A stretch of 38,968 nucleotides of DNA from Stramenopiles sp. TOSAG23-2 (taxonomy: Eukaryota). The stretch covers positions 1-38,968 of the forward strand of contig LT649315.1 of the NCBI GenBank assembly GCA_900128395.1, read 5' to 3'. The translations under genes were made by a program, and so were the position numbers. The number at the start of each line of letters is the position of its first letter. The stretch's first letter is position 1. The notes beneath the pieces are model-generated. The model was not told the origin of the DNA, did not search any database, and worked only from the letters and a program-made list of their open reading frames with translations. This document shows, piece by piece, positions 4,009-37,425 of the stretch.

Positions 4009-4414
4009 GAATATGAATTTACACAACAGCTACAATGATGAAGATCGTGTGCTTTATATATATAGGTTATCTCTGCGTCTAACATGCACTGATATCTATG
4101 TGTTTATGTTTTAGTTTATGTTTCTATTATTTTTATTCATTTTCTTCTTCTTCATTTCTTCTTCTTCTTCTTTTGTTGGGCGAATCCCTTAAATATTATA
4201 ATTGCCGCACGACCGTAACCGCCGCCGACCACACTGCCATTTCTATAGTACTGATTGGAAGGAAGGAAAGAAGTAAAATGAAATTCTATCATCATTATAC
4301 AAAGTAGATATATTATATATGATAAAAAATTATATACGACATATTTAATCCCGATTACTACCTTTTTCTTTTCTCCCATCATTATTTGTACATACATATA
4401 AATCAACAATAAAT

Positions 4415-9549: not shown

Positions 9550-11365
9550 ATGGATTTGAACCAACAGCCAACATTGCAATCGCCATCGAATTTGAGAAAA
9601 GAATCCGTGGATGATGACCCATTAAGTATGTTTCTAGACAATGATGACGAAGAAGAAGAAGAAGTTGATAACAATAATAATAGTAANNNNNNNNNNNNNN
9701 NNNNNNNNNNNNNNNNNNNNNNNNNNNNNNNNNNNNNNNNNNNNNNNNNNNNNNNNNNNNNNNNNNNNNNNNNNNNNNNNNNNNNNNNNNNNNNNNNNNN
9801 NNNNNNNNNNNNNNNNNNNNNNNNNNNNNNNNNNNNNNNNNNNNNNGAATTTCCCACCAACATCAAAGTATAACTTAGGATCACAAAATAATAATTTTGA
9901 TCCTATTAATCCAAATATACTGCACGGGAGCCCAAAGCGACGAACAGTATCACAACCACCGTTACCGACGAAAATAAGGACAAATCAATCGTATCTGACC
10001 AAAACCCCATCGAGTCTAACACCAAAGCCAAATAGACAACCATCAGCCTCTGATACATCATTTAATTATAATAATGGAATGATTAACAGTCTCAACCCAC
10101 TAACACAATTTTTGAACAAGTGTATTGACAAACCGGCTACGACACCATTACCATCAGAATCTTTTAAGGATTGTATTAAATTATATCAAAGTGGTTCATA
10201 TTTAAAATGTATTGAGACGGCAAAAACATTATTGAATCCTTCAGATATAAGTGCAACAAATGTTATCAAATTGCACAGCGAAGAATGGATCAATTTGAAC
10301 TTTTTGAAACTTTTATCATATGTAAAATTAAATTTAAAAGATGAAGCATTGAAAATAATTGAAACCATTGGTGTGATTGATCAACATTTGTATCGTCGCA
10401 ATAATGATAATGATGATGATGATGATAGTGGATCGACTGTACCATTTGCATTACGTATTGAAATTATAAAGTTAACAAATGGTAATAATAAACAAAATCT
10501 TGCTAATAATAATAATAATAAGAGTAAAAAGAACATTTTGAATCATTATCAACAAAATGCTGCTGATAGACTACGTGGTATATTGGCATTGTTGGACTCT
10601 GGCCATGTTAGCGTACTAGGTGAAAATGGAATAAGGCAATTAAAAAAATTAGGGGTTAAAGAAAACGATATCTTAAATTTACGCTTAAAATTATATGAAA
10701 CGATTATCTCCAAATTGTTAAAATGTGAAGAATATGGTGGTGCACATAAATTATTAAATGACGTGTTAGAGACCAGTGAAGATGATGATGATATTAGTAA
10801 TAATAAGTTTGGATTAAATTGTAAAAATCGTCTTTTGTTTGTTTTAAGTGCTGCACGTGTTTACATGCATATGGGAGATATAACAGCAGCAGAACGTTTA
10901 TATAATAAAGGCAAAGAAATGGGAAATAATGATAAAATTGCTTCAGATGATGTTGACATAATTCAAGCACGATTGGGATTGAATTGGGGCTTATTGCTTT
11001 TTTCTAAAAGTAAATTTGAGGAGGCTATAAAAATATTTTCAGAAGTGATTGATAGATGTCGCAATGAAAATATAAAAAATAATAATGTTAATGGTAAAGA
11101 ATGGATTGAATTGATGGTTTCCTGTGCAAATAATTTAGCTGTATGCGCATTAATGGGTGGCGATCCGAAACATGCCGTGAAAGTGATCGAATTAACATTG
11201 CAACATAGCATGTATCGCAACGTAAATATACAATTGATACGAAATTTGAATATTTTATATTCATTATTATATAGCCCAAAGACAGCAAATTCAAAGAAGA
11301 AAGCAATTATTGATGCTGCAAAAACATTTGGTATTGATTTACCAACAAATGGTGTAACAATATGA
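9550..11365 (+). CDS. TRAPPC12: TRAPP complex subunit 12-like TPR protein (spans an assembly gap)
   Basis: GSTVPFALR and C-terminal NNLAVCALMGG...IRNLNILYSL resemble the conserved TRAPPC12 motifs (GSMVPFS.R; NN.AVCLLY.G; LFNL.T.YEL), with TPR-like helices. Start at ATG 9550; the frame change falls inside the N-run, whose length is only an estimate. Confidence 0.7.
9687..9846. other. Assembly gap (160 N)
   Basis: Run of N directly after an AAT-rich low-complexity tract. Confidence 1.
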
Positions 11366-13213: not shown

Positions 13214-13637
13214 TCATGAGTCCTTAAAAATAATTGTAAAATTATGTTTTAAGCCTACATTTAGTAGTATAAGGAATATGTACCAATGATTAGCTATTTT
13301 TGGGTCGTAGGCAGTTGTAATTTTAATGTTAACAACTAGTTGTAAATTTCCACAATTGATTATGTTATCATTGTTTACATGAAATCCAGCTTTTTGCCAT
13401 GCTTTTACATTGCTATTGATGGTTAGAAATAATAATTCCGGTTTGTTTGTATGGTTTGCTAAGTTTAAATAGTTTGAAAATGCGGTGGTTGGTTTGCTTT
13501 TATTTGAGGATGATAATTTCCTACATTTTAAATGGTTAAATTTGGTAATTGGGGATTTGGGAAGATGATATTTTGAAAATGTTATGACGGATTGTGAAAG
13601 GAATCTATGGCGGTGTATATATTGTTGGAGATGCATG
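13214..13637 (-). CDS. Possible truncated gene: transit-peptide-like leader plus start of a VOC/glyoxalase-like domain
   Basis: Basic, Ser-rich leader with no acidic residues (MHLQQYIHRHRFLSQS...RKLSSS), then PELLFLTINSNVKAWQKAGFHVNNDNIINCGNLQL. From memory this resembles the N-terminus of actinobacterial VOC-family proteins (W..AGF.V.....C..G). The 5' end is tandemly duplicated. Confidence 0.3.
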
Positions 13638-13783
13638 ATGTGGGAGGATGATAATTTCCTACATTTTAAATGGTTAAATTTGGTAATTGGGGATTTGTGA
13701 AGATGATATTTTGAAAATGTTATGACGGATTGTGAAAGGAATCTATGGCGGTGTATATATTGTTGGAGATGCATGATGTGGGA
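13506..13783. repeat. 138-bp tandem duplication (2 copies, near-identical)
   Basis: GAGGATGATAATTTCC... starts at 13506 and 13644, with one visible substitution (GGAAG vs TGAAG). Confidence 0.95.
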
Positions 13784-13963
13784 CGTGGGTTGGGGGGGAA
13801 ATTGGAAATGTTTTACGTATATATGCTTTTTCACTTTTTCATCTGTTCTTTGCACTTTTATTCAAATTTTGTTGTTTTTTGATGATTTTTTGAAATGTGT
13901 TATATAGGAATATTATTGTATATTGTAGTTGGTAGTATATAAATAGATATATATTAATAATTA

Positions 13964-16288
13964 TTATGCCCATATCCACACCCCCCACACTTGTTGATAC
14001 CCGTTTGATCCATATCTTTTATATTGTTGTATAGCTTTTAATTGTGATATCATATTATCACTAAGTTGATTATTCTCTAGGCGCAAGAAATCTAATGTAT
14101 TGTTTGTTTTTAATACATCAATAATACTTTGTATTCCACTATCATCAGTAATATTATTATGAGATAGGTTCAATACTCTTAATGTATTGTTTGTTTTTAA
14201 TCCTTCACCAATACTTTGTACATCAGTAATATTATTATAAGATAGGTTCAATGTAGTTAATGTATTGTTTGTTTTTAATCCTTCACCAATACTTTGTACA
14301 TCAGTAATATTATTATTATCTAGGTTCAATTTCGTTAATGTATTGTTTGTTTTTAACAATTCACCAATAGCTAATGCATCCTCATCCGTGAGAGTATTGT
14401 TTGTTTTTAATCCTTCACCAATACTTTGTACATCAGTAATATTATTATCAGATAGGGACAATTCCTCTAATGTATTGTTTGTTTTTAACAATTCACCAAT
14501 AGCTAATGCATCGTCATCCGTGAGATTCTTTCCCCCCAAATTCACTTCCCTCTTTCCATCAAATTCTTTTTCCCATTTAATATATATTATATATGCAGCA
14601 CTTTTCTTTGTCTCTGCTCCATTTTTCACATGTTGCATATCTCCCATAAGCGTATTTTCCATCTCATTATGATCACGTTCAACCTCTAGAAGTCCATCTT
14701 CATTCTTATCATTCCCTTTCGATTTTGTTTGTATAGTTTTTGACTGTATTTTTTCAGTTGTTATAAACATATTATTATTATCATCTATACCAGATGAAAC
14801 ATCTACCCATCCTTGTTGCACCGTTGATTTTTCTTGTTGTTCCGGTCGTCTATGTTTGATCGCCTCCTTATGTTTACGTTTCATTTCCTCTTTTTTTATT
14901 TCTTGCATTTTATCAATTGCAGGACCACCTGATAGTTGCTTAATTATTTTATCTATATTTAAATTCAATACATCGGGATCATCACGATCCACTTTCATAA
15001 ATGCTATATCACTAAGAAATTTAAATTCTGCTGGAGCCAATGACATTAATTTTCCAATGTTCTGTTGATCATTTCTTCGAACAACAGGTTGAATCGGTAT
15101 ACCAGCTTCTTTTGCCCATCTTAATTCTTCCAGACAGTACCATCGATTAAAATATGCATTCTTTTCAGGTGGATCAGAAAAATCTTCATTAGCACAAGGG
15201 CCAGTTACGATAGCAAGAAATAATTTACAATTTTCAACACCTTCTTTCATTGCATCTGTTGATGGATCGGACATTTTAACATCTAGCCACACAGTGTAAC
15301 CTTTGGCAGTCAATTCATTATGTAAAGTTTCAGCAAGTGTTGTTGCTACTCCACTACGTCTGGAATGTCCAATAAAAAAATCCCAGTGGCCTGGTTTATT
15401 AAATGTTTTTTCTGATGTTGCTCCTTTTAATTGTTCACTCAAGTTCTCAAACGTAGGTCTTTCCTCTGGTTTCTGTGCCCAACAATCTATTATAAATTGT
15501 TTTTCGCTATCTTCTAGACTTATTATTGCATCTATCGATGGACGTTCAGGTTGAGAATCTTCAAACATTAGCGCCTCCATGTGCATTGCTAAAATTTCAT
15601 TTTCAGGTACACCAGCAAATGCCATTTTACCAGAAAATAATTCCCAGCTCAATATCGCAAAACTGTAAACATCAGCTGCTTTTGAATATGTTGCTCCACC
15701 CATGCGCTTCGATTTGAAAAGTTCTGGTGCTTTATATTGTATTGTCCCTCGCTCTCCTTTTGTTGACCCGGCAGACATTGTTTTAATTTTTGACAATCCA
15801 AAATCTGATATCCATGGAACATCGTCTTTGCTAATTAAAATATTTTCAGGTTTTAGATCTAAATGTAATATGTTACGACTATGCAGCATTGCCATTCCAT
15901 TGCATATACCACATGCAAGTTGAAATCGTTTCGCGTTTGACATATTTGGTTCATAATTAAGTAAATCTCTTAAATTTCCTTTTTCTGCAAACGCTAATAT
16001 AAGCATAGGTGGCTTGAAACAAATATTTAATATTTGTACAACATTTTGATGTCTACATAAGCTTAACGTTTTGAATTCATTCTGTAATAATGATTTTGCT
16101 TGTTCACGATCTTTTTCGCTCGCCTGCACATAAAGTTTTTTAATTGCAACATCCATTCCATATAAAGTACCTTTATGTACATCTGCAAAAGCACCTCGTC
16201 CGATAACTTCAACAATTTCAATTGCACTCGCATCAATTTCCCAATTTTTATTTGCTTCTACATTTTCTTCCAATAATAATCTTGACAT
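13964..16288 (-). CDS. TKL-type protein kinase - TIR - leucine-rich-repeat protein
   Basis: ATG at 16288 (MSRLLLEE). Kinase at about 16240-15425 (GRGAFA, VAIK, HLDLKPEN, DFG, GTIQYKAPE, DVYSF). TIR at about 15390-14935 (WDFFIGHS, GYTVWLD, MKEGVENCKLFLAIVT, WYCLEELRWA). RI-like LRRs at about 14550-14020. Confidence 0.9.
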   Translation of the reverse strand: MSRLLLEENVEANKNWEIDASAIEIVEVIGRGAFADVHKGTLYGMDVAIKKLYVQASEKDREQAKSLLQNEFKTLSLCRHQNVVQILNICFKPPMLILAFAEKGNLRDLLNYEPNMSNAKRFQLACGICNGMAMLHSRNILHLDLKPENILISKDDVPWISDFGLSKIKTMSAGSTKGERGTIQYKAPELFKSKRMGGATYSKAADVYSFAILSWELFSGKMAFAGVPENEILAMHMEALMFEDSQPERPSIDAIISLEDSEKQFIIDCWAQKPEERPTFENLSEQLKGATSEKTFNKPGHWDFFIGHSRRSGVATTLAETLHNELTAKGYTVWLDVKMSDPSTDAMKEGVENCKLFLAIVTGPCANEDFSDPPEKNAYFNRWYCLEELRWAKEAGIPIQPVVRRNDQQNIGKLMSLAPAEFKFLSDIAFMKVDRDDPDVLNLNIDKIIKQLSGGPAIDKMQEIKKEEMKRKHKEAIKHRRPEQQEKSTVQQGWVDVSSGIDDNNNMFITTEKIQSKTIQTKSKGNDKNEDGLLEVERDHNEMENTLMGDMQHVKNGAETKKSAAYIIYIKWEKEFDGKREVNLGGKNLTDDDALAIGELLKTNNTLEELSLSDNNITDVQSIGEGLKTNNTLTDEDALAIGELLKTNNTLTKLNLDNNNITDVQSIGEGLKTNNTLTTLNLSYNNITDVQSIGEGLKTNNTLRVLNLSHNNITDDSGIQSIIDVLKTNNTLDFLRLENNQLSDNMISQLKAIQQYKRYGSNGYQQVWGVWIWA
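14094..14525. repeat. 78-bp coding tandem repeat (LRR units)
   Basis: Units start at 14180, 14258 and 14336 (period 78); a 59-nt block is identical between units. Confidence 0.95.
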
Positions 16289-17252
16289 AATGATGGTCGA
16301 AGAAGAAAAGAAAAAAAGGTATAATAACACAATATCGATATTTAAGAGTAATAATTTCAGTTTCAATTTATTTACGTATATATATATCAACTGTATCTCG
16401 TATTTATATATCTATATCTATATATATCACATACACATTGTGTATTTGCAACATTATTACATGTAATATATGTATCTTCTTCGATACTATTGTAATTGTG
16501 GCACATTGAAAGATTATTTATTAGATAGATATAGATAGATAGAAGTTGCAGAAGCAAAGTTATAGGCAACTACTTCTTATACATACACAGCAACCACAGT
16601 ATTATACCTATAGTATAGCACTATAAGTAGAAGAAGAAGAAGAAGAAAAAAAAAAAGCTGTTGTTTTGTTTGTTGTTGTTGGTTGTTGGTCAATTATTAT
16701 TATTATTGGATCGTAGGCAATGCTGTGTCAATTGTAATAGATGCTAGCATGATAGTACGCCTAAAATCAATATAGCATAGACAGAAAAACATAATAATAC
16801 TTAAATTTTAATAAAATTTCCATAATATATAAAAATTACATGTGAATGTAGCACGAGAGTTGCCGGAACCAATCCTGTCATTGTGTGCATCATAAAAATT
16901 TAGAAAATCATCTCGGTAAAAATTAATGATGGTTAAAATCTAAGTTATAATAATTTTACACTTCTCGTGCTAAGTAATATGCTCAATACTCAATCGCAAA
17001 GAATAATATTCTATCCTATTATAGTAAAGCTCTAATGCACCTCTGCAAACTAATACTCTACAAGCATGAGTAGGTTTTTATCCTTCCATGCGCAATATAG
17101 CAATAATATAAATTTAGTATGCGTATAAAGGACAAGGTTTAAAGTGGCCATTCGCAGTGTGTGAATATTTGGCATCATTATACAACAGGGTAAAGAAAGG
17201 TCCTATCAACATACTTCTTTTTTGGGAAATGAGTGTGTGATATATTGTACAA

Positions 17253-22217: not shown

Positions 22218-22451
22218 ATTATAATAATAAAAATGTAGAGAGCGTGGGTCTTACTTCTAGACTTGGTTCTTTTGTAAATTTGTTTTATTTTTATTTCAAT
22301 TCTACTTCACTGTGATATGTTTTATATATATAGATTATAATAATAAAAATGTAGAGAGCGTGGGTCTTACTTCTAGACTTGGTTCTTTTGTAAATTTGTT
22401 TTATTTTTATTTCAATTCTACTTCACTGTGATATGTTTTATATATATAGAT
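22218..22451. repeat. 116-bp exact tandem duplication
   Basis: ATTATAATAATAAAAATGTAGAGAGCGTGGG... at 22218 and 22334. Confidence 0.95.
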
Positions 22452-23768: not shown

Positions 23769-24020
23769 TCGAAGCAAAAAGATGGAAAAGGTCTTGGATT
23801 TTGAATATTTGAATATTTCTTTTAATATTGGCGCCCCCCCGTTATTTTCATGGAGGTGATATGCTGTGCCTTGCTAATATTGACATACCATGGATCGAAG
23901 CAAAAAGATGGAAAAGGTCTTGGATTTTGAATATTTGAATATTTCTTTTAATATTGGCGCCCCCCCGTTATTTTCATGGAGGTGATATGCTGTGCCTTGC
24001 TAATATTGACATACCATGGA
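23769..24020. repeat. 126-bp tandem duplication at the head of the 61-bp array
   Basis: TCGAAGCAAAAAGATGGAAAAGG... at 23769 and 23895; each copy ends in a partial 61-bp unit. Confidence 0.95.
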
Positions 24021-24443
24021 CATAGCACCGTTATTTTCAGGGAGGTAGTGCTGTGCCTTGCTAATAGTGACATACCATTGACATAGCACCGTTATTTTCA
24101 TGGAGGTAGTGCTGTGCTGATGCTAATAGTGAAATACCATTGACATAGCACCGTTATTTTCATGGAGGTAATGCTGTGCCTTGCTAATAGTGAAATACCA
24201 TTGACATAGCACCGTTATTTTCATGGAGGTAGTGCTGTGCTGATGCTAATAGTGAAATACCATTGACATAGCACCGTTATTTTCATGGAGGTAATGCTGT
24301 GCCTTGCTAATAGTGAAATACCATTGACATAGCACCGTTATTTTCATGGAGGTAGTGCTGTGCTCATGCTGCCAAGAAATACCATTGACATAGCACCGTT
24401 ATTTTCATGGAGGTGATGCTGTATGCTGTGCCATGCTAATAGT
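24021..24443. repeat. 61/62-bp minisatellite, about 7 copies
   Basis: Consensus CATAGCACCGTTATTTTCATGGAGGTAGTGCTGTGCCTTGCTAATAGTGAAATACCATTGA, with units starting at 24021, 24082, 24144, 24205, 24267, 24328 and 24389. Confidence 0.95.
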
Positions 24444-35758: not shown

Positions 35759-35981
35759 CTCCATTATTTTCCAGGTACATAGCATGGGAGAAATAGCAGG
35801 TACACAACGAACGTCGGAGGTGTAAAATTGAGGAGTTCAAAAAGTATATTTTGCCGACAGTCTTTTTATCTCCATTATTTTCCAGGTACATAGCATGGGA
35901 GAAATAGCAGGTACACAACGAACGTCGGAGGTGTAAAATTGAGGAGTTCAAAAAGTATATTTTGCCGACAGTCTTTTTATC
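35759..35981. repeat. 111-bp exact tandem duplication of the outer end of the left long inverted repeat
   Basis: TCCATTATTTTCCAGGTAC... at 35760 and 35871. Confidence 0.95.
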
Positions 35982-36177: not shown

Positions 36178-37425
36178 ATGATGTCTGCAATGTCATTATC
36201 AACAAATTCAACAGAAAAATATGAAAAATATGACAATTGGACACCTTATTCAGGCACAATGACCCAAAAAAGTGCTGGGTGGGAATATAAAAGTGGAAAA
36301 TATCTTGGTGAGAGTGTCGTATTTTACAGAAATGTACCATTCAATTCAAGAAAAAAAGTTAAAAAACATACTGTTGCGTATGTGTTAAACAGCTTAACAC
36401 CAAACACAGTTACTTTTAATAAGATGATACAGCTGTTGCGGAAACACTCATCCGTTTCAAGCAATGAGTTTACAGTACAGGATTTACGGCAACTTGAAAC
36501 CAAAGGGAAACGTAAAACCAAAACAAGTGCATACTGCGGAGAATGTGGCAATAAAATAAGCAGCACTGCACTCACATCTGGCTTTTGCAATACTTGCACA
36601 TCGCGAAAAAGACAAAAAATGCAAAAGGAGGTACTGCGACAAAAAAAGGAGAAAGAAGAAAAAGAGGCAAATATACTAGCCAAAGAGGCAAATATATTAG
36701 ATTTAAAGAAACAAATACGTGAAATGAAACAAGAAAGTAATAAAATCAAGGAAAAAATGAATCTTCAACAACTGGAACTGGTAAAGTTAGAGCAATCTTT
36801 TGCCACAGTTAGTTTGGAAAAAAACAATTTTATAAAAGAACAAGAGAGAAGTAAGGCAACGTCTCTACAGGAGGAAAATGATTTTTTGAAAGGGAATTTT
36901 GAGGCAATGAGTACTAATATTGGTGACTTTCTTGCATTAAATGGCACAATAATAAGCCAACAACAACAAATTAACAATAATAATAATGAAATAAAAGCTA
37001 AATTTGAAACGTTAGAGCAATCATTTCGTCAAGTTGTTCTTGCATTAAATGGCACAATAATAAGCCAACAACAACAAATTAACAATAATAATAATGAAAT
37101 AAAAGCTAAATTTGAAACGTTAGAGCAATCATTTCGTCAAGTTGAAGAGAAAGTAGAGTCTTTTGGTATTGGGTTGGAAAAATTAAAAAATATGCAATAC
37201 CTGCCAAGAGAAAATCCCTTTGGCATCTCTTTGATTGAAGATGTAACATACTTTGGTATATATAGACTGGCTTCAACACCGTTTTCCAATGGTTATACAG
37301 GTATTGAGCGTGTTTCCAATCTTTCAGGTTTAGGAAAATCAGAGGCGTACATGGCTTGCAACAGCCTGATGCGTGTTGCTGCATCCTGTTCCGTCGGGAC
37401 ACTTGTTTTTGCTACCGAATACTGA
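36178..37425 (+). CDS. Orphan protein with CxxC-x13-CxxC zinc finger and long coiled coil
   Basis: 415-aa ORF with CGECGNKISSTALTSGFCNTC followed by a K/E/Q-rich coiled coil. It contains an in-frame 108-bp duplication (36931/37039). No DDE motif is recognisable. Confidence 0.7.
   Translation: MMSAMSLSTNSTEKYEKYDNWTPYSGTMTQKSAGWEYKSGKYLGESVVFYRNVPFNSRKKVKKHTVAYVLNSLTPNTVTFNKMIQLLRKHSSVSSNEFTVQDLRQLETKGKRKTKTSAYCGECGNKISSTALTSGFCNTCTSRKRQKMQKEVLRQKKEKEEKEANILAKEANILDLKKQIREMKQESNKIKEKMNLQQLELVKLEQSFATVSLEKNNFIKEQERSKATSLQEENDFLKGNFEAMSTNIGDFLALNGTIISQQQQINNNNNEIKAKFETLEQSFRQVVLALNGTIISQQQQINNNNNEIKAKFETLEQSFRQVEEKVESFGIGLEKLKNMQYLPRENPFGISLIEDVTYFGIYRLASTPFSNGYTGIERVSNLSGLGKSEAYMACNSLMRVAASCSVGTLVFATEY

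Follow-up and report, generated by a model that had tools for sequence, protein, structure and literature searches.

A leucine-rich repeat module with a uniform DNA scaffold and diversified strand codons in a kinase-TIR gene of a marine stramenopile

The gene and its leucine-rich repeat array

The stretch analysed here, called the window, comprises the 38,968 nucleotides of contig LT649315.1 (assembly GCA_900128395.1, Stramenopiles sp. TOSAG23-2), and the element in question is an array of leucine-rich repeats (LRRs) encoded on its minus strand. The array is the C-terminal LRR module of one intact, uninterrupted and intronless open reading frame (ORF) for a kinase-TIR-LRR protein. The earliest ATG of this ORF is codon 35 (16286-16288), ahead of the kinase domain. 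Apart from the kinase and TIR domains (Table 1), the protein matched PF13516 LRR_6 with 32.5 bits (cut-off 23.4) and PF12799 LRR_4 with 38.1 bits, and no Pfam match to NACHT, NB-ARC, LRRNT or LRRCT was identified in it. Metatranscriptome contigs are colinear with 14589-16383 at about 96% identity, a hint, weak because RNA libraries can hold DNA, of intronless transcription of a close relative there.

The array alternates constant and variable DNA. The 59-nt block at 14180-14238 is identical letter by letter to 14258-14316 and its last 55 nt are found again at 14394-14448, with no further copy on either strand of the window. The four 19-nt windows beside these blocks (14161-14179, 14239-14257, 14317-14335 and 14449-14467) are all different and read RVLNLSH, TTLNLSY, TKLNLDN and EELSLSD on the coding strand. 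This pattern had been described in a first-pass annotation of the sequence and was confirmed at the level of single letters, as was its placement of the changes on the x positions of LxxLxLxxN: the three canonical 78-nt units have 11 variable columns, 10 of them within the 15 nt of codons 2, 3, 5, 7 and 8 (9 being first or second codon bases) and only one in the other 63 nt (Fisher P = 2.4e-8). The extent given there, 14094-14525, takes in most of the array and falls short of the whole module, which begins at about 14609, reaches the stop codon at 13964-13966 and continues for about 55 nt into the 3' untranslated region (UTR). In what follows the strand segment LxxLxLxx of a unit is called the cassette and the remainder the scaffold.

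Table 1. Features of the kinase-TIR-LRR gene, in coordinates of the window
Feature	Position	Strand	Basis or remark
Whole ORF, stop included	13964..16390	-	mechanical ORF list: 808 codons from a TTG; encodes kinase-TIR-LRR
Protein kinase domain, residues 57-321	15428..16222	-	PF07714, E = 1.9e-48, 165.5 bits
TIR domain, residues 338-444	15059..15379	-	PF13676 TIR_2, E = 7.5e-8, 33.3 bits against a cut-off of 28
Module 5' edge (linker KKSAAY..KWEKEFDGK) and N-cap (strand VNL and helix DALAIGELLKTNNT)	14471..14609	-	blastn, L005 divergence, unit map
Canonical 26-residue unit, cassette LEELSLSD, scaffold with 55-nt block 14394-14448	14393..14470	-	
Out-of-register half unit (LTDEDALAIGELLKTNNT), 18 residues: second copy of the N-cap helix without beta-strand	14339..14392	-	
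Canonical unit, cassette LTKLNLDN, scaffold with 59-nt block 14258-14316	14261..14338	-	
Canonical unit, cassette LTTLNLSY, scaffold with 59-nt block 14180-14238	14183..14260	-	
29-residue penultimate unit (LRVLNLSH and NNITDDSGIQSIIDVLKTNNT), one per gene family-wide	14096..14182	-	
C-cap: unit LDFLRLEN, NQLSDNM..QQYKRYGSNGYQQV and terminal strand (WIW)	13967..14095	-	
Family-conserved 3' UTR, core 20-mer 13920-13939	13908..13963	-	3'-flank alignment; end of paralogue DNA homology

The half unit goes back to a tandem duplication of 132 nt, with copy 1 at 14393-14524 and copy 2 at 14261-14392. Ten sites distinguish the copies, and 8 of these fall on the first or second base of one of the five x codons (hypergeometric P = 1.1e-9). 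This number of differences is not that of a simple overlap duplication; artefact-like duplications in other parts of the window are 99-100% identical. At the protein level the canonical units of the window differ pairwise in 3-5 of 26 residues (81-88% identity) and the two 44-residue copies in 6 of 44 (86%), whereas their DNA scaffolds are 100% identical, in an array that is itself unverified. A 9-nt insertion in the window gene was observed within the segment 14580-14639, exactly at the 5' edge of the module, where it reads AAYIIYIKWEKEF against AAYIKWEKEF in the related locus L005 and AAY(I/M)KWEKEF in others.

The AlphaFold2 (AF2) model of the module is moderately confident (mean predicted local distance difference test score, pLDDT, 75.9; predicted template-modelling score, pTM, 0.77). 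It comprises alternating strands and helices, with a strand at positions 3-5 of every unit and a final strand from the C-terminal tail (model residues 200-202). In LRR proteins the x side chains of the strands line the concave face, and the assignment of the variable residues to this face agrees with the model, where the x positions flank or sit in the predicted strands. Foldseek matched it (probability 1.00, E = 5e-7 to 8e-6, template-modelling score on the query up to 0.72) to NOD2 (32-33% identity), RNase inhibitor (RI) and NLRP1/3, designed RI-like LRRs also being matched; other matches were doublet-microtubule LRR proteins and SDS22.

The module in related loci

A scan of metagenome contigs gave 26 related loci (L001 and following), whose arrays share a common plan: a linker, KKSAAYxKWEKEFDGK in many of them, an N-cap helix, 2 to 8 canonical units, one 29-residue unit and a C-cap ending in ..QYKRDGSNGYQQVxGMxIxT. 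From these and the window 82 ungapped canonical units were extracted and one aberrant unit of L013 was dropped, leaving 81 units from 24 sources (23 loci and the window). Their consensus is LxxLxLxxNNITDVQSIGEGLKTNNT.

The codons of the scaffold are fixed position by position. Leu4 is TTG in all 81 units, Leu1 is TTA in 63 of 72, Leu6 is CTA in 69 of 79 and Leu21 is TTA in 78 of 81. Asn24 is AAC in 77 of 81 units whereas Asn9, Asn10 and Asn25 are AAT, and the glycines are GGT at position 18 (71 of 76) and GGA at position 20 (46 of 50). Since the same amino acid is written with different fixed synonymous codons according to its position, genome-wide codon bias cannot be the cause. The scaffold is not strictly invariant, with 60 distinct 54-nt scaffolds in the 81 units and the consensus scaffold present 15 times, 3 of them in the window. 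Most units are 0-5 changes away from the 63-nt family consensus, those of the window 1, 0 and 0. The exact 59-mer, for which a search beyond the window had been proposed in the first-pass annotation, is multi-locus, with 14 copies in 10 of the 26 loci.

The cassettes behave in the opposite way, 76 of the 81 being distinct. Re-use of cassettes from a small pool was rejected on this count, the repeats being those of the pair L009/L011 and one duplicate in L012. A protein-level set, which overlaps the loci, comprises 140 units from 79 database proteins with 117 distinct cassettes and the same entropy profile, reaching about 3.2 bits at unit positions 3, 5 and 7.

RI-like LRR arrays with 36-46% identity were also identified in Rickettsiales, Chlamydiae and Legionella (database proteins P0009, P0017, P0031, P0032 and P0039), some of them fused to TPR. 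These are intracellular bacteria whose hosts are protists and insects, and their arrays may be host-mimicking proteins.

Selection at the x codons

At x codons 2, 3, 5, 7 and 8 of LxxLxLxx the first and second bases are near saturation in the 81 units, whereas most units keep the third: NNG at position 2 in 64 units, NNA at position 3 in 62, NNC at position 5 in 65, NNT at position 7 in 72 and NNT at position 8 in 73. NNC at position 5 is contrary to what an A+T-biased genome would favour. Y, D, N, S, H, R and W are the preferred residues at positions 3, 5 and 7.

Nei-Gojobori proportions of nonsynonymous (pN) and synonymous (pS) differences were calculated over all unit pairs. They are 0.48 and 0.31 for the x codons against 0.07 and 0.13 for the scaffold, and the values for single x codons are 0.63 and 0.22 at position 5 and 0.585 and 0.101 at position 7. 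A one-to-one comparison is offered by the 29-residue unit and the C-cap, 65 residues that align ungapped in 15 loci (104 pairs, the near-identical pair L009/L011 being left out), and here the scaffold has pS 0.035 and pN 0.051 and the x codons pN 0.54. Formal omega values are rough, since averaging over paths at codons with multiple hits raises the pS of the x codons.

Strong diversifying selection on the amino acids at the x positions, and not local hypermutation, is well supported by these data; it is one of the two explanations given in the first-pass annotation. The third bases of the variable codons are kept, which indicates that change was filtered by its effect on the amino acid and was not aimed at nucleotides. 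Local hypermutation and adenine-directed mutagenesis of the retroelement type were both rejected on the base spectra (A17, G32, T19 and C13 at base 1 of position 7) together with the retention of third bases. The evidence for selection, that is the fixed codons, the third bases and the units present once per gene, is independent of how the units were threaded in assembly.

Probable exchange between paralogues and the edges of the module

Over about 780 nt (15360-14580) a single base separates the window from L005. The two diverge from 14579 on, where L005 lacks the 132 nt of the window duplication, and no relationship is left beyond 13919. Between cassettes in matching positions 4, 7, 8 and 7 of 15 nt differ, random pairs having a mean of 6.75 (standard deviation 1.9). 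Paralogue pairs with alignable heads have a much higher synonymous divergence in the head than in the module: pS is 0.374 in the heads and 0.051 in the LRR scaffolds of L001/L006, and 0.416 and 0.063 in those of L017/L021. Homology by blastn to paralogues with unrelated heads begins at 14585-14609 and stops at 13908-13914, about 55 nt beyond the stop codon. The lower pS of the scaffolds with respect to the heads, together with the difference between the modules of the window and L005, points to recombination or concerted evolution, and the gap in pS and the homology at the module edges do not depend on the threading of units. It is likely that paralogues exchange sequence by way of the constant DNA, the evidence coming in part from unverified short-read contigs.

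The proposal that the constant blocks act as recombination handles has gained indirect support from the gap in pS, from the unrelated cassettes behind near-identical heads, from in-frame out-of-register junctions in the window, L007 and L013 and from a nonsense cassette shared by two genes; mis-threaded contigs could also account for all of the last three. Four gametes were found at 39 of 105 scaffold site pairs, some of them 2-3 nt apart, where conversion, recurrent mutation and sequencing error are inseparable, and they were not counted as support. Concerted evolution specific to each gene was rejected, scaffold identity being 0.912 within loci and 0.917 between loci.

In-array stop codons were observed in three loci. 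The shared nonsense cassette is an identical 24-nt cassette with TAA at x3 in L006 (3884-3886) and L014 (2782-2784), which have different heads, and L001 has an in-frame TGA at unit position 20 (4412-4414). Such loci may be pseudogenes, may have received a transferred cassette or may be contigs that were threaded wrongly.

Of 17 aligned flanks, 11 have a recognisable copy of the 3' UTR element, which is conserved in family members with unrelated heads, and its 20-mer is exact in 5 of the 26 loci. In the window the 20-mer is present once against 0.01 expected. The element may serve the family as a regulatory or 3'-end signal, or may show that the module spreads as DNA. A role as general terminator was rejected, as within the window the motif lies behind the LRR gene only.

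Equal scaffold identity within and between loci could also mean that the uniformity comes from a recent star-like burst and not from ongoing conversion. A single master unit or module would then have multiplied and diverged by point mutation and selection only, without continuing exchange, and the small distance of most units to the 63-nt consensus has the star-like form expected of it. We regard this as rather improbable. Paralogue heads have pS 0.37-0.42 and modules 0.05-0.06, and old heads with young modules need a recent grafting onto many heads, which is itself recombination. The heads of the window and L005 are 99.9% identical with cassettes at the distance of random pairs, and one nonsense cassette is found in two genes. 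Recombination more than recency would keep the scaffold uniform.

A very improbable explanation is the programmed, possibly somatic, assembly of cassettes as in the lamprey variable lymphocyte receptor (VLR), or a mutagenesis of the x codons by a retroelement-type system. Constant 59-nt blocks beside variable 19-nt windows, unrelated cassettes behind near-identical heads and 76 distinct cassettes in 81 units would all suit such a mechanism, and somatic recombination has been proposed for receptors of Ectocarpus (PMC3341825, in the portion of the text available). The window gene, however, is complete and in frame, and a six-frame hidden Markov model (HMM) scan of the 38,968 bases identified units at 14096-14545 only and no donor cassettes elsewhere; the lamprey analogy drawn in the first-pass annotation is not supported by these results. 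The retained third bases and the absence of a single template base at position 7 are equally contrary to it, as are the arrays of L009 and L011, which are colinear with few changes.

Host and quality of the assembly

The window has a G+C content of 31% and a single run of N (9687-9846), and the sequencing runs that contain it are marine. The neighbours of the LRR gene are ordinary cellular genes: a GH38 alpha-mannosidase, a diphthamide synthase whose top named homologues belong to oomycetes (55-57% identity), an ankyrin-FYVE protein and a histidine phosphatase. These features fit a marine protist, probably a stramenopile, with an AT-rich genome largely free of introns. A viral origin was rejected, as no relatives were identified in viral_contigs, none of 9 pattern matches was confirmed and the other genes of the window are cellular.

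The window and all 26 related loci are short-read contigs. In 12 of the 26 loci a contig edge lies inside the array: 9 end at most 6 nt from the end of the match, L017 at most 48 nt from it, and L015 and L018 begin inside. Logan contigs from four runs are built with k = 31 and break at repeats, none of them spans the window array, and its unit order and number, its junction with the head and the 132-nt duplication are therefore unverified. A protein search with linker and module listed 91 proteins, none of which covers both the unique linker and the array; one of them (P0317) is 98% identical and comprises the head only. In run X1 the summed depth is 14,000-38,600 over the array against 266 on the unique part, a value that is not a copy number and is consistent with many similar sequences. 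Run X5 has no cover over 15534-16221, from which no inference was drawn.

Five two-copy tandem duplications with a period of 108-138 nt and 99-100% identity were observed in the window (13506-13783, 22218-22451, 23769-24020, 35759-35981 and 36929-37144), one of them within the ORF 36178-37425. Together with the run of N they may be artefacts of scaffolding or gap-closing and bear on the trust placed in the assembly. An array of a 61-nt unit (7.4 copies, 91% matches, 23965-24422) overlaps one of the exact duplications. Two ORFs of the mechanical list, 13214-13855 on the minus strand and 14265-14672 on the plus strand, are by-products of the 138-nt duplication and of the antisense of the LRR array, respectively, and are not likely to be genes.

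The blocks, the order of the units and the duplication of 132 nt could all be the work of a short-read assembler that threaded or collapsed reads of many paralogues. Common k-mer sizes are shorter than the exact repeats (55-59 nt), no contig bridges the array, the loci broken inside their arrays and the other near-exact duplications point to such errors, and L005 has a near-identical head without the 132 nt and with a different tail. There is also published precedent, as short-read assemblies of such repeats in Podospora omit or create units (PMC12222747, in the part available). We consider this unlikely while giving it real weight. An artefact does not explain why every unit, whatever its neighbours, has the fixed synonymous codons and the kept third bases, nor why the C-terminal units present once per gene have them too; the 132-nt copies differ at 10 sites, and the reading frame is unbroken throughout.

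Head domains and putative function

The head domains of the window protein and ten relatives were identified with Pfam. Kinase-TIR is shared by the window and L019, and TIR with a ResIII/DEAD helicase by L001 and L006. The others have CHAT, ResIII and a Schlafen-group-3 helicase (L021), ResIII (L017), caspase Peptidase_C14 (L008), ankyrin (L012), kinase (L020) or MLKL_N and kinase (L022), with the exception of L007, in which no head domain was found. None of the ten has a match to NACHT or NB-ARC, and neither they nor the window protein have one to ROC or COR; 4 of the 10 carry P-loop domains of the ResIII helicase type. More distant LRR matches in the database (40-43% identity) do carry PF05729 NACHT (P0003 and P0004). 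The combination of kinase, TIR_2 and LRR_6 was also observed in two proteins of a chytrid fungus (P0081 and P0086, 33-34% identity to the LRR part), and this combination may be older than the LRR-module family, or convergent.

One or more of TIR, CHAT, caspase, MLKL_N and Schlafen-type helicase, domains typically linked with immunity or regulated cell death, are present in 6 of the 10 relatives, and the window gene has a TIR domain. A binding face saturated with amino-acid changes is usually a sign of antagonistic co-evolution. The domain composition suggests that the family may serve the recognition of non-self (pathogen, virus or allorecognition), with signalling through the heads, and the cassettes would bind ligands. 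In receptors of the NOD-like receptor (NLR) type, heads of this set are those linked with immunity and regulated cell death, and the names of these domains are also present in a figure legend of PMC13449251 (available in part).

The same evolutionary pattern could belong to a function other than immunity, such as an adaptor for signalling, the recognition of prey or mates, or allorecognition. RI-like LRRs are also known from axonemal and regulatory proteins, as the Foldseek matches to doublet-microtubule LRR proteins and SDS22 illustrate, and in part of the family the head is a transmembrane or ankyrin one or contains no domain that can be recognised. With immunity or cell-death domains in the majority of the relatives scanned and a binding face changed to saturation, we find such a function doubtful.

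Interpretation

The array is probably the ligand-sensing end of a cytosolic kinase-TIR-LRR protein from a fast-turnover family, in which the scaffold is kept uniform by recombination and the x residues are under diversifying selection. In this large family one module is attached at the DNA level to many different heads. It comprises about 55 nt of 3' UTR besides the linker, the N-cap, 2-8 canonical 26-residue RI-like units, one 29-residue unit and the C-cap. The heads (kinase-TIR, TIR-helicase, CHAT-helicase, caspase, MLKL_N-kinase and ankyrin) are of kinds usually found in immunity and regulated cell death, and through them non-self recognition (pathogen, virus or allorecognition) would be signalled. 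Recombination among units and paralogues, by unequal crossing-over, gene conversion and exchange of whole modules, would hold the scaffold DNA, synonymous sites included, near one family consensus. The five solvent-facing residues around each strand (x2, x3, x5, x7 and x8) would at the same time be driven apart by diversifying selection on amino acids.

Several observations weigh against this interpretation. The window/L005 mosaic, the junctions, the shared TAA cassette, the number and order of units and the 132-nt duplication could each be the product of mis-threading. Scaffold identity is no higher within loci than between them, two units of one locus share an identical scaffold only a little more often than expected (12 pairs against 5.3, P = 0.02), and the L009 and L011 arrays are colinear with few changes. 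The pS of the x codons is itself high (0.31-0.36), and in the close pair L009/L011 these codons are mildly elevated only, with pN 0.045 against pS 0.021-0.042. The half unit was not placed in the AF2 model, where pLDDT falls below 50 at model residues 53-68 (window 14372-14419), and the window copy of the gene may be impaired by it. The immune role, finally, is a putative one, suggested only by the domain composition of the family.

A stronger form of the proposal is a recognition repertoire free of nucleotide-binding oligomerization domains (NODs) in an uncultured marine flagellate of stramenopile type, in which a portable stretch of DNA (linker, LRR array, caps and 3' UTR) has moved among at least eight kinds of immune or cell-death head, heads 99.9% identical bear unrelated specificities and the binding-face codons are diversified anew at a fast rate; we regard this as quite improbable. 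Were exchange frequent in mitotic growth or actively promoted, it would amount to recombination-based diversity of recognition in a unicellular eukaryote, with the 59-nt blocks as homology handles.

The family as interpreted here is a candidate repertoire for innate immunity or non-self recognition in marine heterotrophic protists. To our knowledge, almost nothing is known of the defences of these organisms against viruses and intracellular bacteria. The family can also be regarded as a 'consensus LRR library' made by nature, one that shows which positions determine specificity.

Comparison with known systems

No description of the family was found in full-text literature searches, supplements not being covered. 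In a comparative-genomics paper on uncultured marine stramenopiles (PMC8163842), again apart from its supplements, the terms leucine, LRR, TIR and caspase do not occur.

The module shares with the RI-like LRR class (NOD2, NLRP1/3 and RNase inhibitor) the strand-helix horseshoe and the match to LRR_6. The units of that class usually comprise 28-29 residues, whereas the canonical unit here has 26 (78 nt) with one 29-residue unit per gene, and the module has its own conserved N-cap, 29-residue penultimate unit and C-cap with a terminal strand.

The VLRs of lamprey and hagfish are made of LRR modules with a conserved framework and variable residues on the concave face, their diversity being generated by copying between cassettes. 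Unlike them, the gene described here is complete, with no arrays of donor cassettes in the 38,968 bases of the window, and its protein is cytosolic, fused to kinase-TIR and without matches to LRRNT or LRRCT. In plant R genes diversifying selection is concentrated on the solvent-exposed strand residues of xxLxLxx, and plant LRRs are not known to be conserved internally at the level of DNA. Near-identical DNA with one or two variable codons is found in the repeats of transcription activator-like (TAL) effectors, which are bacterial effectors and bind DNA.

The LRR-ROCO family of the brown alga Ectocarpus, to which the array had been likened in the first-pass annotation, is under selection and shuffles exons of one repeat each (PMC3341825). 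Common to this family and to the NB-ARC-TPR genes of Ectocarpus on the one hand and the present one on the other are a probably stramenopile lineage, diversifying selection on the LRRs, birth-and-death dynamics and a sensor remodelled by the shuffling of units (PMC3341825, PMC11378527; both sources available in part). The analogy holds for selection and shuffling and fails for the one-repeat-per-exon layout: the array here is a single uninterrupted ORF, and neither the window protein nor the ten relatives had a match to a ROC-COR GTPase.

The closest match is to the highly internally conserved (HIC) repeats of fungal NLRs, as described in the available portions of PMC4986451 and PMC12222747, and in particular to the WD40 repeats of the Podospora HNWD genes (het-e, het-d and het-r), which are 80-100% alike both within and between paralogues. 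The HIC repeats (WD40, ANK and TPR) combine similarity between repeats, concerted evolution of paralogues, polymorphism in repeat number and diversifying selection at a few positions of the binding face (PMC4986451, PMC12222747). The identities of the window units, in an array that is itself unverified, fall within the range of 80-100% given for HIC repeats in PMC12222747 and are borderline for the rule of PMC4986451, by which repeats are at least 85% identical over at least 100 residues. Shared with the fungal genes, as far as the same sources are available, are the hypervariable positions of the binding face, the cell-death heads (TIR, CHAT and MLKL_N among them), the occasional stops in repeats and the unreliability of short-read assemblies, and probably, to judge from short-read contigs, the variation in repeat number and the exchange of repeats within and between genes. 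A survey of 2026, available in part, reports HIC repeats across the domains of life, LRRs being among the types screened, with an enrichment in ATPase-containing proteins (PMC13449251).

In contrast to fungal NLRs, the sensor here is an LRR, a repeat given as absent from them in the available portion of PMC4986451; the window protein and its ten relatives have no NACHT or NB-ARC, the host is a marine protist and the conserved module includes the 3' UTR. The combination of HIC repeats with hypervariable sites is regarded as a generator of diversity in fungal and in some bacterial and animal NLR-like receptors with WD40, ANK and TPR sensors. The present family has this design with an LRR sensor, a 26-residue unit, no NOD domain, no introns in the array and conservation that extends into the 3' UTR, in an abundant but uncultured kind of marine protist; the heads to which its sensor is joined without an intermediate are TIR, MLKL_N, caspase, CHAT and Schlafen-type helicase.

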